From a bacterium (lineage in GTDB: Bacteria; Verrucomicrobiota; Verrucomicrobiia; Chthoniobacterales; UBA6821), in contig JBAXTN010000004.1 in NCBI GenBank assembly GCA_037130175.1, positions 45,606 through 109,605 on the forward strand: a stretch of 64,000 nucleotides of DNA, written 5' to 3'. Position 1 is the stretch's first letter, and each line of letters opens with the position of its first letter. Below are positions 16,161 to 41,704 of the stretch, piece by piece. The notes under the pieces were generated by a model, which searched no databases, was not told where the DNA came from, and saw only the letters and a list, made by a program, of their open reading frames with translations. The translations under genes and the position numbers were made by a program.

Positions 16161-16350
16161 CCACGAGCTTGCACATTCGGCATAAAAACAGAATGCGATT
16201 TTTTATATCACGATGCCGTTAAGGAAGAGCTGAATAAATCCCATGATGGTCACAGGCCATTTCCCATTGAAAAAATTTCTTTCGCGGCAAGTCCCGAGAG
16301 TACGCGACTTTTTCTTCCCCATCGCTCACGCGCTGCACTAGCATCATCGC

Positions 16351-17301
16351 ATGGCATCGAAAGAATCTGGCAAGGGAGGCTCTCATGAGAGCACTTCTTC
16401 CTTGGGTAAAAATCTCGGCAAAGGGTTGGGGAAAGGGCTTGGCGCGCTGATCAATCCCCGCGTGGCGGCTCCATTACCCTCTGAAGAACGAGGTGAGAGA
16501 ATTCAGAACATCCCCATTGATCAGATCGTTCCGAGCCCTCTCCAACCGCGCACGGAGTTCCGCGATGAACAACTACGCGACCTGATCGACTCCATTCGCG
16601 AGCGGGGTATTATTCAACCATTGATCGTCCGTCTTGCTGGAGGAAAATATGAGTTGATTGCCGGAGAACGCCGCTTCCGTGCTTCACTGGAAGTCGGTCT
16701 GACGGAGGCTCCCGTCATCGTACGCAAGGCCACCGATCAGGAAGTGCTCGAACTTGCCCTCATTGAGAACCTTCAGCGGGCCGATCTCAATCCGATTGAA
16801 GAGGCGACAGCCTACAACCGTCTCTCAAAAGAGTTTCATCTCACACAAGAGGAAATCGCCCGACGCGTGGGCAAGAGCAGGGCCTCCATCGCCAATGCCA
16901 TGCGTCTCATGGAACTGGATACAGAGGTTCAGATTCATCTCACCCAGGGCAGAATCACGGTCGGCCATGCCAAGGTACTGCTAGGCATCAAAAACACAGA
17001 TGAACAACGCCTGCTTGCTGCAAGAATCATCAGGCTAAACTCCTCGGTGCGTGATGCCGAAAACCTAGTCGAATCGCACCTTGCCGGTACAGGTGAAAAG
17101 AAAAAGCGCAGCATCCGAAAATCCGGGCTCGTATCGGAACTTCCTCCAGCACTGAAACATCTGGAGAACAAACTCCAGCACAGATTTTCCACCAGAGTCT
17201 CGCTTCATCATGCCGAGAAGAAGGGTCATATTGCGATCGAGTATTACGGATCGGACGACCTCCATCGACTGATTGGTGAATTTGGCATTTCAGCGGATTG
17301 A
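16351..17301 (+). CDS. parB: Chromosome partitioning protein ParB/Spo0J
   Basis: 316 aa. GLGKGLGALI N-terminal box, PRTEF, IIQPLIVR and YELIAGERRFRA ParB boxes, and an HTH (LTQEEIARRVGKSRASIANAMRL). Confidence 0.9.
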   Translation: MASKESGKGGSHESTSSLGKNLGKGLGKGLGALINPRVAAPLPSEERGERIQNIPIDQIVPSPLQPRTEFRDEQLRDLIDSIRERGIIQPLIVRLAGGKYELIAGERRFRASLEVGLTEAPVIVRKATDQEVLELALIENLQRADLNPIEEATAYNRLSKEFHLTQEEIARRVGKSRASIANAMRLMELDTEVQIHLTQGRITVGHAKVLLGIKNTDEQRLLAARIIRLNSSVRDAENLVESHLAGTGEKKKRSIRKSGLVSELPPALKHLENKLQHRFSTRVSLHHAEKKGHIAIEYYGSDDLHRLIGEFGISAD

Positions 17302-24383: not shown

Positions 24384-24458
24384 TGGCTCCAGCGGTAGGG
24401 CTCGAACCTACAACATGCGCATTAACAGTGCGCTGCTCTACCATTGAGCTACGCTGGA
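24384..24458 (-). tRNA. tRNA-Asn (anticodon GTT), CCA encoded
   Basis: The reverse complement folds as a cloverleaf: TCCAGCG-TA-GCTC-AATGGTA-GAGC-A-GCGCA-CTGTTAA-TGCGC-ATGTT-GTAGG-TTCGAGC-CCTAC-CGCTGGA-G-CCA. The anticodon loop is CT-GTT-AA. Confidence 0.95.
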
Positions 24459-38454: not shown

Positions 38455-39579
38455 TCAGGAATTATTCTCTTTAAAAAACGATTTGACCTTGGGATCCGAA
38501 TGGTAATCGGCAAAGGCGCTATCCATCATCAGCTCACGAAAGATAGTGGGCGGATAGAGATCCCTAGCGCGCTCAAGAAAAACCGCCGCTTCCTCGCTCT
38601 GTTTTAACTGCAGGGAAGTCAACGCTGCTGCCAAGGCCTGTTCTCCAGTCATGGCGGTCAATTCTGACAGGGAGGGGGCTGACTTGGCCGGTTCATTTTG
38701 CATCCTTGCAAGCTGTTCTTTTGCAGAGAGTAACTCCTTTGCAGCCTCAGGGTCGGAGCGGAGCACTCCCTTGTGCAAAATCCCAACGGCACTCCGATAC
38801 TCGCCTGTCGACCGAAGCAGATCGCCCAGTTTGGCGAAGGCTCTGGCATCATCGGGATGCGCTGCCATGTATTGTTTGATCTCATTTTGCGCCGTGACGG
38901 ATGGATCAGCCAGTTGTTGGGGTTCTTGTACACCTGATTTTGACTTTGCGAGATTGATGATGGCAAGAAGCATGCGGGCTTCACCTGTCAACTCGTTCTT
39001 AGAGACAGCATGCTGCGCCGCTTCCTGAGCCAATGCTTGCTCACCGGCTTTATTCGCAGACTCGGCAATCAGGTAATCGATTCCAAAAAGTGCTGGCTGC
39101 GTGTCCTGTGCTTTTTGAAAATCAAGCATGGCCACTCGATATTTACCATCCTGATAGGCGGTGAAAGCCGTATCGAGAAGTACCTCGGCCTCGGCCGTGG
39201 GGAGAGGAACCTCCTGTTGAGTGCTGCGGTTTGACACATCGGTATGTGTGCCGAACTTCTGACCGAAATAAAAGCCAATGGAGAGAAAGGCAACAGCGCC
39301 CAGGAAGCAACATCCTCCCATGATCCAGCGGTCGAGTTTTTCTCCGGGGGATCTCTTGTTACGACCCTTGGAGTGCGTTCTTGGTTTGGTACCCGAAGAG
39401 CGGGCGGTTTCCCGATCATGGCGTCGGCTCGATCGGTGCCGGTGAAGTCGCTGCTCAAGACCGTTCTCCGGCGTGGAACTGGGCGTGCTCGGAATCTCCG
39501 CGAAGGGATCCCGGGCAGATGACTCCTCGCCGGAGAAGTCACCGGATAAGGAGGAGGAAGGGGTACCCTGATCATTCAT
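38455..39579 (-). CDS. Membrane-anchored hypothetical protein with disordered basic N-terminus and TPR-like C-terminal domain
   Basis: 374 aa. A Ser/Arg/Pro-rich N-terminal ~85 aa, one TM helix (WIMGGCCFLGAVAFLSIGFYFG), then helical-repeat sequence. No family recognised. Confidence 0.5.
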   Translation of the reverse strand: MNDQGTPSSSLSGDFSGEESSARDPFAEIPSTPSSTPENGLEQRLHRHRSSRRHDRETARSSGTKPRTHSKGRNKRSPGEKLDRWIMGGCCFLGAVAFLSIGFYFGQKFGTHTDVSNRSTQQEVPLPTAEAEVLLDTAFTAYQDGKYRVAMLDFQKAQDTQPALFGIDYLIAESANKAGEQALAQEAAQHAVSKNELTGEARMLLAIINLAKSKSGVQEPQQLADPSVTAQNEIKQYMAAHPDDARAFAKLGDLLRSTGEYRSAVGILHKGVLRSDPEAAKELLSAKEQLARMQNEPAKSAPSLSELTAMTGEQALAAALTSLQLKQSEEAAVFLERARDLYPPTIFRELMMDSAFADYHSDPKVKSFFKENNS

Positions 39580-39663
39580 GGAGGAAAATTCTTAAGGAGT
39601 TAGATAAAATAGAGGGCAGGTCTGTTGATGAACAGCTTTCTGAAGGAGATCAGATAGATGAAA

Positions 39664-39945
39664 TTAAGGAAACGCTGATTTAATCCCATGAAGACCGCTG
39701 AGAACCAGTTGCTGATTTTTGAAGGCGCGAGTGCTGGGCGATACCCGCAGCGGTCTCGCCCGAGCGAGCAACGCAACAAAAATCGACAACTGACTCCAGC
39801 CCTTCGGGTTGCGGCGATAAAAGGTCGGCGACTGCGTAGGATTCGTGCTTACAGCCCACTGTGGGGATGCTCGCGCGAAGCCGCCTGGTCGGCGACCCCT
39901 TCTTGCCGCAACGGTCTCTATGTGATTAAATCAGCGGTTCCTTAA
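39664..39945. repeat. 282-bp element bounded by 22-bp inverted repeats (candidate MITE or structured ncRNA)
   Basis: The left arm TTAAGGAAACGCTGATTTAATC (39664..39685) and the right arm GATTAAATCAGCGGTTCCTTAA (39924..39945) are reverse complements with one mismatch. Nested complementary segments occur at 39692-97/39912-17 and 39725-31/39870-76. The interior is GC-rich. Confidence 0.65.
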
Positions 39946-40108
39946 AGCCAAGACTAGATTTTTTTGTTTCCAGTTTGCGAATTCGAGCAACTCCCTGTTA
40001 TAACATCCCTCTTCAATTCAAATTTCCGGGAAGCCTCCCCCTCATTGCTTATTCCCGGATCCAAGCATCCAAATATCAGCCTGCCATCCCAACCATATCC
40101 TATTGACC

Positions 40109-41704
40109 ATGAGTTCTATTCCCAAAGTTTTTGTTGCCGATCCCGTCTCCTCGCGTGGAGTTGAAGCCCTTGCCGAAGGAGGTGTCGTTGAGGTCGTCGT
40201 CAAGACAGGACTCAAGGAAGCCGAACTCATCGAGATCATCCCCGACTTTTCCGGCCTGGTCGTCCGCAGCCAGACCAAGGTCACTCCGGCTGTCTTTGCG
40301 GCGGCAAAAAAGCTTAAGGTCGTGGGCAGGGCCGGAGTGGGCATTGACAATGTCGATGTTGAGGCGGCAACCAAGCATGGTGTGATCGTCATGAACGCCC
40401 CTGGCGGCAATACCATCTCGACAGCCGAACACGCCTTTTCCCTGATGCTATCAGTGGCCCGGAACATTCCACAGGCCAATGCGAGCATGAAAGCAGGCAA
40501 GTGGGATCGCAAGAAATTCGAGGGGGTGGAACTCTACGAGAAGACACTGGCGATTCTCGGTATGGGCCGCATCGGAACCGAAGTAGCCCGTCGGGCCATT
40601 GCTTTCGGCATGAAGGTGCTGGCCTACGATCCGTACCTTTCCGCGAGCAAGGCCCGTTCTCTCCAAGTTGAGGTAGTAGAAAAACTTGATGATCTCCTCC
40701 CCCGTGCCGACTTTATCACCGTGCACATGCCCCTGACCGAGGAGACAATGCACATGATTGGAGCCAAACAGCTTCCCCTGCTGAAGAAAGGAGTGAGGAT
40801 CATCAACTGTGCTCGGGGAGGACTCATCGACGAGTCCGTCCTTGCCGAGGGGCTTAAGAGCGGACAAATAGCCGGAGCCGCGCTTGATGTCTTTGATGTC
40901 GAGCCTCCCGCCGCTGACTGGCCCTATCGCTCTATCGACAATCTCGTGCTGACCCCTCACCTTGGAGCCTCCACTGCAGAAGCTCAGGAACTTGTTGGTA
41001 TTGAGATAGCGCAGGCGGTGCGTGCAGCTCTTTTGGAAGGTGAGATTCGCAACTCGGTCAACATGCCCAACATTGATGCCAAGACGCTTTCAACACTCGG
41101 ACCTTGGATTAATCTTGGTGAAAAACTCGGCCTTTTCCTCGCACAGATTTCTCCCAAGCGCGCTGAGAAAATCAGCATCCGCTACAGCGGCCGCCTGGTG
41201 GATCAGGATCTTACAGCAGTCACACGCGCTCTTATCACCGGCTACCTCCGCCACATTCATGGCAATGAAGTGAATCCAGTAAACGCTCCAGCTATCCTGC
41301 GCAATCACGGACTTGAGGTTGTGGAGACCAAAGAGAGTGAAGCCGGTGAATTCACCGATCTGATTGAAGTGACCATCCAGCAGGACGGACATACGGCCTC
41401 CGTTGGCGGTACACTCTATGGTTCCAAACCGCGCATTGTCACGGTAAATGGCCGCTTCGTGGAAGGTGTACCATCGGGCGTTATTCTGCTCCTCGAAAAC
41501 CGTGATCGCCCCGGCATTGTCGGACATCTCGGTTCCTTGCTTGGGGCCAACAATGTGAATATTGCCAGCATGTCACTGAGCCGCAACGAAGTCGGAGGGC
41601 AGGCATTGACTCTTCTGAATCTTGATTCAGCCCCTGATGATGATCTGCTTGGCAAAGTGACCGCTGACGCAGACATCGCATCTGCCCAGGTAATCAGACT
41701 CTGA
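40109..41704 (+). CDS. serA: D-3-phosphoglycerate dehydrogenase (long form with ACT domain)
   Basis: ATG at 40109 preferred over TTG at 40103. NAD-binding LAILGMGRIGTEVARRA, catalytic INCARGG and TPHLGAST motifs, and a C-terminal ACT-type regulatory region. Confidence 0.95.
   Translation: MSSIPKVFVADPVSSRGVEALAEGGVVEVVVKTGLKEAELIEIIPDFSGLVVRSQTKVTPAVFAAAKKLKVVGRAGVGIDNVDVEAATKHGVIVMNAPGGNTISTAEHAFSLMLSVARNIPQANASMKAGKWDRKKFEGVELYEKTLAILGMGRIGTEVARRAIAFGMKVLAYDPYLSASKARSLQVEVVEKLDDLLPRADFITVHMPLTEETMHMIGAKQLPLLKKGVRIINCARGGLIDESVLAEGLKSGQIAGAALDVFDVEPPAADWPYRSIDNLVLTPHLGASTAEAQELVGIEIAQAVRAALLEGEIRNSVNMPNIDAKTLSTLGPWINLGEKLGLFLAQISPKRAEKISIRYSGRLVDQDLTAVTRALITGYLRHIHGNEVNPVNAPAILRNHGLEVVETKESEAGEFTDLIEVTIQQDGHTASVGGTLYGSKPRIVTVNGRFVEGVPSGVILLLENRDRPGIVGHLGSLLGANNVNIASMSLSRNEVGGQALTLLNLDSAPDDDLLGKVTADADIASAQVIRL

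Follow-up and report, generated by a model that had tools for sequence, protein, structure and literature searches.

A palindromic 282-bp element upstream of serA as a probable copy of a dispersed MITE family with IS5-type ends

Identity of the element

The 282-bp segment at positions 39664-39945 of the DNA analysed here (a stretch of 64 kb, referred to as the window) is, with high confidence, one copy of a multi-copy non-coding MITE (miniature inverted-repeat transposable element) with IS5-family ends, inserted at TTAA between two divergent genes, a TPR-like gene and serA. IS5-type ends, a 4-bp YTAR duplication, a small non-coding body, dispersed copies and a precise empty site were all found. 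Every sequence-level property by which bacterial MITEs are recognised (PMC10969869) is present, and the ends together with the duplication place the element with the IS5 group. It is regarded as an ordinary selfish element and not as a regulator of serA or a gene for a dedicated RNA. A first-pass annotation of the same DNA had hesitated between a MITE and a structured RNA, and had proposed a search for further copies; this search returned many copies at unrelated sites, with target-site duplications, which was the outcome named for a MITE. No description of this family was found in the literature, which yielded general MITE reviews only.

In the mechanism proposed here, an IS5-group DDE transposase encoded elsewhere would bind the terminal repeats of about 18 bp, GGAAnCGCTGATTnAATC, and move the element in trans, while insertion at YTAR sites by staggered cuts would give rise to the 4-bp duplication. 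The present copy landed between the divergent promoters of the TPR-like gene and serA, presumably with a neutral or mild effect on these two genes. The Y-shaped, rod-like fold reflects nested palindromes, typical of MITEs with these ends.

Organisation and predicted fold

The element consists of a 274-bp MITE body with a 4-bp TTAA on either side. Its parts, and a second member of the family in the window, are as follows.

39664..39667, no strand: left TTAA, target-site duplication (direct non-palindromic 4-mers in other copies; single TGAA in the empty site of relative L227)
39668..39685, plus strand: left terminal inverted repeat GGAAACGCTGATTTAATC (the same end flanks IS5-family transposase genes in L106, L022, L028 and L124, and forms the ends of ISBmu2)
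39668..39941, no strand: MITE body, 274 bp, non-coding (about 100 related copies, 40 full-length copies aligned)
39706..39792, no strand: internal hairpin or palindrome P2, which is conserved most strongly within the family (consensus helices 2-3, paired in 98% of cells)
39797..39811, no strand: small junction hairpin CAGCCC-TTC-GGGTTG, which competes with the base of P3
39808..39912, no strand: internal hairpin or palindrome P3, which holds most of the compensatory changes (helices 5-8)
39924..39941, minus strand: right terminal inverted repeat, GGAACCGCTGATTTAATC on the minus strand (repeat finding, comparison of copies)
39942..39945, no strand: right TTAA, target-site duplication (copy flanks, empty-site alignment)
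16219..16262, plus strand: remnant of the same MITE family, a truncated left end (TTAA followed by GGAAGAGCTGAATAAATCCCATGATGGTCAC; nhmmer family profile, model positions 2-47, E 3.9e-5)

The 22-nt terminal repeat reported previously was recovered at 39664-39685 (plus strand) and 39924-39945 (minus strand) with its single mismatch. It occurs nowhere else in the 64-kb window, and no chance match is expected, none having been obtained in 100 shuffles. The imperfect complementarity of the left terminal inverted repeat runs on to 39700, and repeat finding extended the arms to 37 nt with 86% complementarity (39664-39700/39909-39945); it also detected inverted repeats at two more places in the interior, 39706-39721/39777-39792 and 39808-39832/39888-39912. 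The subterminal sequence of the element is ATCCCATGAAGRCCGCTG. The previously described pair AGACCG/CGGTCT (39692-97/39912-17), the junction hairpin and the duplication of the 10-mer GGTCGGCGAC at 39823 and 39887 were likewise present. The segments GCGCGAG and CTCGCGC were located at 39725-31 and 39870-76 as described, but in the supported fold they are not paired with each other, each being engaged in a separate hairpin (39706-39792 and 39808-39912, respectively).

The predicted fold is Y-shaped and consists of a long closing stem and two long hairpins. The minimum free energy of the plus strand was -143.6 kcal/mol, compared with -98.1 +/- 5.2 kcal/mol in shuffled sequences (z -8.75), and that of the minus strand was -148.9 kcal/mol (z -10.3 relative to shuffles). 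The element is G+C-rich relative to its flanks, and the family as a whole contains about 58% G+C.

The window thus carries one full copy and one remnant. The latter is located in the spacer upstream of a ParB-like ORF (16351..17301), and no right end was detected near it.

IS5-type terminal repeats

The ends of the element, GGAAnCGCTGATTTAAT, are those of IS5-group insertion sequences, and in several phyla transposase genes of the IS5 family are found at a distance of about 70 nt from them. The 21-mer TTAAGGAAnCGCTGATTTAAT was found at no fewer than 119 loci in GTDB representative genomes, and those listed span Bacillota, Bacteroidota, Desulfobacterota, Pseudomonadota, Planctomycetota, Chloroflexota, Verrucomicrobiota and one archaeal metagenome-assembled genome (MAG). 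At four of the loci (L106, L022, L028 and L124) an ORF of 327-334 amino acids begins about 70 nt inside the repeat. The ORFs of L106 and L028, which were the two scanned, scored 298-332 bits on the NCBIfam model NF033581 'IS5 family transposase', and that of L106 also matches DDE_Tnp_1 and DUF772 of Pfam. In Bacillota, Desulfovibrionaceae and Betaproteobacteria, DDE transposase genes of the IS5 family are flanked by these ends. Many other loci of the 21-mer are repeat pairs, with the inverted copy 44-282 bp away, bounding short non-coding elements whose interiors are unrelated. These MITEs of other phyla, which share the ends but are otherwise unrelated, are rod-like as well, with z values from -4.7 to -19 against mononucleotide shuffles.

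Among annotated plasmids, the nearest named relative of these transposases was ISBmu2 of Burkholderia multivorans (63% identity). On pBMUL01 this insertion sequence begins with CTAG followed by GGAAACGCTGATTTATTC and terminates with GATCAGCGTTTCC followed by CTAG, and its ends GGAAACGCTGATTTATTC and GGAAACGCTGATCAATGG match the end core of the element. The terminal repeat core GGAAACGCTGAT of ISBmu2 and related IS5-group insertion sequences (NF033581) is identical to that of the element. In contrast to insertion sequences of the ISBmu2 type, the element has only 274 bp and contains no transposase gene, so that it would have to be mobilised in trans; past about the first 18 nt its interior has no similarity with the examined insertion sequences. 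By tblastn, no transposase gene of the IS5 family was detected in the 64-kb window or at the approximately 100 element-carrying metagenome loci (L126-L225), which represent partial genomes only. Several contigs of Verrucomicrobiota MAGs stop just past the same terminal repeat. The end GGAAnCGCTGAT, common to IS5-group elements and to many unrelated families of rod-like MITEs across phyla, offers a handle for the cataloguing of non-autonomous IS5 derivatives.

Three further observations concern these ends. A nearly identical AT-rich MITE of 145-167 bp with the same IS5-type ends was present in L053, L059 (Paludibacteraceae MAG), L075, L085, L118 and L125 (Dialister MAGs); its occurrence in MAGs of both Bacteroidota and Bacillota points to horizontal spread or mis-binning. 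Minimal palindromes of 35-45 bp, made of two abutting IS5-type ends (e.g. TTAAGGAAACGCTGATTTAATCAGCGTTTCCTTAA), are common in MAGs of gut Bacillota and Bacteroidota (L007, L013, L026, L031, L072, L091, L109 and others), and may be the smallest derivatives of elements with such ends, or excision footprints. The single archaeal match of the 21-nt end, in the Nitrososphaerales MAG contig L089, was accompanied by no partner end or transposase within 4 kb and could be due to chance or contamination.

Target-site duplication

The outermost TTAA on each side, which had earlier been counted with the structure of the element itself, is a target-site duplication located outside the inverted repeat. The 4 nt outside GGAA...TTCC were compared in 66 unique full copies, and were identical on both sides in 24 of them and different at one position in another 22. 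The identical 4-mers were CTAG, TTAA, TTAG, CTAA and CTTG. Non-palindromic direct pairs, such as TTAG..TTAG and CTAA..CTAA, were found 12 times, versus one pair of the inverted type. A 4-bp duplication of the YTAR type is expected for the IS5 group. Moreover, ISBmu2 has the same property, duplicating, like the element, 4 bp of a target of the YTAR/CTAG type.

Dispersed copies and coding capacity

A metagenome scan with an internal 20-mer of the element gave 100 loci. With blastn and an nhmmer profile, 78 full elements were delimited, and the flanks of 69 of these are distinct. The copies are 76-96% identical to that of the window, and a length of 282 bp clearly predominates. They derive from freshwater, peat and soil metagenomes and from Verrucomicrobiota MAGs. 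Two or three copies were found on single contigs (L209, L128, L150, L154 and L204), the lake metagenome Ga0208327 carries copies on at least 20 contigs, and Ga0194052, one contig of which is identical to the window locus, has a further three on different contigs. One Verrucomicrobiota MAG has copies on two contigs (L054 and L014). Among the matches listed, all GTDB genomes with copies belong to Verrucomicrobiota ('Spartobacteria' and unclassified), which hints at where the window comes from, and as far as seen the family is confined to Verrucomicrobiota-like genomes of freshwater, peat and soil. Every copy is intergenic, and the flanking genes occur in all arrangements.

In other assemblies of the window locus (L002-L006) the sequence breaks off at the element or within it, as is expected for a repeat, and the same sequence as in the window is present in three independent JGI assemblies (L001, L002 and L004). 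The family has a practical significance, since it breaks the metagenome assemblies of freshwater Verrucomicrobiota-like genomes; the presence or absence of the element at a site can also be used as a marker for dating lineage splits.

The 85-aa ORF at 39688-39945 had been described as not protein-like, and the comparison of the copies agrees with this in indicating that it is non-coding. The column variability at the three codon positions was 0.095, 0.058 and 0.073, without an excess at the third, the frame is open in about 70% of the copies and interrupted by stops or frameshifts in about 30%, frames on the opposite strand are open too, and no match for the ORF was obtained in Pfam or NCBIfam. 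It was rejected as a gene on these grounds. Gene callers annotate it as a protein, and it should be masked as a repeat.

Comparison with other MITEs

The Tourist-type MITEs of eukaryotes are mobilised by PIF/Harbinger transposases, which are relatives of those of bacterial IS5. They resemble the element in being non-autonomous, in having only the ends in common with the autonomous element, in their short A/T-rich palindromic target (TWA, versus YTAR here) and in their foldback structure; they differ in belonging to another domain of life and in having a 3-bp instead of a 4-bp duplication. Bacterial MITEs, including Correia/CREE, ERIC, RUP, QMITE and the Nezha/Chunjie type, have been reviewed (PMC10969869). 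Like these, the element is small, non-coding, multi-copy and intergenic, has terminal inverted repeats and target-site duplications, and its predicted transcripts are long stable stem-loops (PMC10969869). Bacterial MITEs are typically AT-rich (PMC10969869), whereas this family, as noted above, is not. Moreover, the element is Y-shaped with two internal palindromes, in contrast to the single hairpin of general bacterial MITEs, from which the family also differs in having longer versions (357-642 bp) with nested extra hairpin repeats.

Conservation of the fold among the copies

The structure was examined in 40 aligned full-length copies with a mean column identity of 90%. The RNAalifold consensus contains 84 pairs, and 97.6% of the cells are paired. 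Changes on both sides were found in 16 of the 84 pairs, compared with 10.3 +/- 1.6 in shuffled alignments (0 of 500), and the covariation score was 0.129, compared with 0.070 in the shuffles and 0.02-0.04 when the partners were slid. In P3 the pairs 184:217 (GC 24, CG 13), 187:214 (AU 20, GC 18) and 188:213 (CG 30, GC 8) are exchanged, and compensatory changes also occur at 169:232 and 171:230. At the apex of the right hairpin, the helix 180-188/213-221 exists in three haplotypes which differ at three pairs, each of them being fully paired. Helix 4, which corresponds to the junction hairpin 39797-39811, showed one-sided changes only, and its bases pair elsewhere in the minus-strand consensus. 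Paired columns are less variable than unpaired ones (0.061 versus 0.102), and P2 is nearly invariant (0.034), although the collection of the copies with an exact internal 20-mer inflates the apparent conservation in the vicinity of that 20-mer.

The divergence between copies is 0.116 per site, compared with 0.275 per site between the two halves of their own target-site duplications, and therefore purely neutral decay does not describe the interior. The interior is under some constraint or homogenisation, and its pairing is actively maintained or homogenised.

With regard to the strand, the consensus of the reverse-complement alignment was more stable (-134.5 versus -97.1 kcal/mol), the minus strand folded better in 35 of the 40 copies, and the conserved positions of the G.U type were evenly divided, six favouring the plus strand and six the minus strand. 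An assignment of the RNA strand from the counts of G.U versus A.C (240 versus 30) was rejected as an artefact of structure prediction on the plus strand, the minus strand having given the same G.U count. Template switching from arm to arm in quasipalindromes, together with gene conversion among copies, gives rise to strand-symmetric covariation without function. The strand-symmetric pairing fits the maintenance of a palindrome at the DNA level, or gene conversion, as well as it fits selection on an RNA. Because the pairing is symmetric in this way, DNA-level processes (template switching, gene conversion) and/or weak selection are a likelier cause of its preservation than a dedicated RNA function.

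It could nevertheless be proposed that the interior of the MITE is also selected as a functional structured nucleic acid, either a co-transcribed RNA module acting in the stability, processing or termination of mRNA, or a mobile small RNA. The compensatory changes, the three fully paired haplotypes, the low variability of paired columns and the slow divergence described above would all agree with such a role, as would a slight preponderance of copies in the orientation of the downstream gene (24 versus 12) and the fact that stable stem-loops are common among MITE transcripts, which can be regulators (PMC10969869). However, the orientation bias was not significant (p = 0.065, with crude ORF calls), strand asymmetry was absent, and a promoter and terminator scan of 39400-40300 revealed neither a sigma-70-like promoter nor a terminator within the element or next to it; moreover, the window copy is situated between divergent genes, so that it may not be transcribed at all, and the covariation is of the kind that template switching and gene conversion also produce. 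Selection on the interior in addition to mobility is accordingly regarded as unlikely. The more specific proposal of a functional mobile module of structured RNA or single-stranded DNA, with a three-way-junction fold kept by selection, is given a slightly lower probability still; if it were true, the IS5-type ends would be a vehicle by which a structured element with a role in regulation or defence spreads among the genomes of Verrucomicrobiota.

The empty site and the serA locus

The reading as an inserted MITE was compared with the situation at the same locus in relatives. The gap between the TPR-like gene and the serA start codon (ATG at 40109) is 529 bp, which corrects the 520 bp given by the first-pass annotation; that the two genes are divergent was borne out. 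Orthologs of the TPR-like gene were found at 92, 75, 62 and 59% identity (L226, L227, L230 and L231, respectively). The 75% relative reads GATGAAATGAAAGCCAAGACTAGATTTTTTTG, which equals the window sequence after removal of the element and of one TTAA, apart from a single substitution (TGAA for TTAA), the comparison covering the surviving TPR-proximal part of its spacer. In the 62% and 59% relatives serA is divergent from the TPR-like gene and is followed by atpB, and the spacer measures about 263 bp versus 529 bp in the window. The alignment confirmed that all three lack the element at the exact junction. The 92% relative has the element in the position that it has in the window, to the extent that its short contig covers it. 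Given the precise empty site in the 75% relative, the insertion is younger than the split from that lineage, and it predates the split from the 92% relative.

A block at 39950-40006 of the window, AAGACTAGATTTTTTTGTTTCCAGTTTGCGAAT...CTGTTATAAC, is conserved and includes the T7 run at 39959-39965. This run had been listed among the features of the element; it is present as reported, but it does not belong to the structure of the element, since the run and the sequence following it (TTTGCGAAT...CTGTTATA, about 39955-40005) are kept in relatives without the element, and both are ancestral intergenic sequence. The block 39950-40006 may contain a putative serA promoter (TTGCGA, a spacing of 17-18 nt, and TTATAA/TATAAC), and possibly a divergent promoter too; it was not called by the consensus promoter scan. 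The conserved block close to serA lies undisturbed downstream of the insertion, for which reason this copy probably has little effect on serA. The findings do not change the current understanding of serA regulation or of transposons.

The other reading put forward earlier, according to which the element is a structured non-coding RNA of one locus or a leader regulating serA in cis, would account for the strong predicted fold, for the G+C content, which exceeds that of the flanks, and for the position of the element, which ends 163 bp upstream of the serA start codon. It is refuted by the precise empty site, with the absence of the element from the spacer at 75, 62 and 59% identity, and by the dozens of unrelated loci, not syntenic with serA, at which the element occurs; the IS5-type ends with target-site duplications and the position of the conserved block, which lies between the element and serA, also speak against it. 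Nor did Rfam lend it support: with Rfam 15 at gathering scores the whole window gave only a tRNA match (24387-24458), and over 39500-40150 up to E = 10 only a 12-bit chance match to sR33 was obtained. At five loci with long variants the element was also unmatched, the only matches being to tRNAs. The families so covered include riboswitches, RNase P RNA, tmRNA, SRP RNA, 6S RNA, ribozymes and large non-coding RNAs. In annotation the element should be taken neither for a serA leader nor for a new non-coding RNA. A chance palindrome or an assembly artefact, for which only the breaks of some assemblies inside the element could be adduced, has a negligible probability in view of the fold (z -8.8 and -10.3), the approximately 100 homologous copies elsewhere and the identical sequence in the three independent assemblies.

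The tRNA gene at 24387-24458, which lies on the minus strand and scored 71.2 bits, is the sole Rfam match in the window.

Size variants and nested repeats

Besides the common form, long variants of 357, 363, 396, 526, 564 and 642 bp were found, in which extra hairpin modules are present at fixed points of the core. Modules A and E, and in one case module C, occur outside the element too, in the same genomes, and at least some of the long variants are therefore due to the nested insertion of other small repeats. The interpretation of the long variants as expansions of a structured RNA was partly rejected for the same reason, as these modules also stand alone.

Module E is a REP-like repeat of about 35 nt, GCCCGGCCGTTGCTnCGCATCCGTTACGG, which is sometimes arranged in tandem. 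Direct and inverted intergenic copies of this repeat were observed in these Verrucomicrobiota-like genomes at L051:3700-3960, L206:7165-7580 and L197:1778-1816, and in some copies of the MITE (L183) it is nested in the apical loop.
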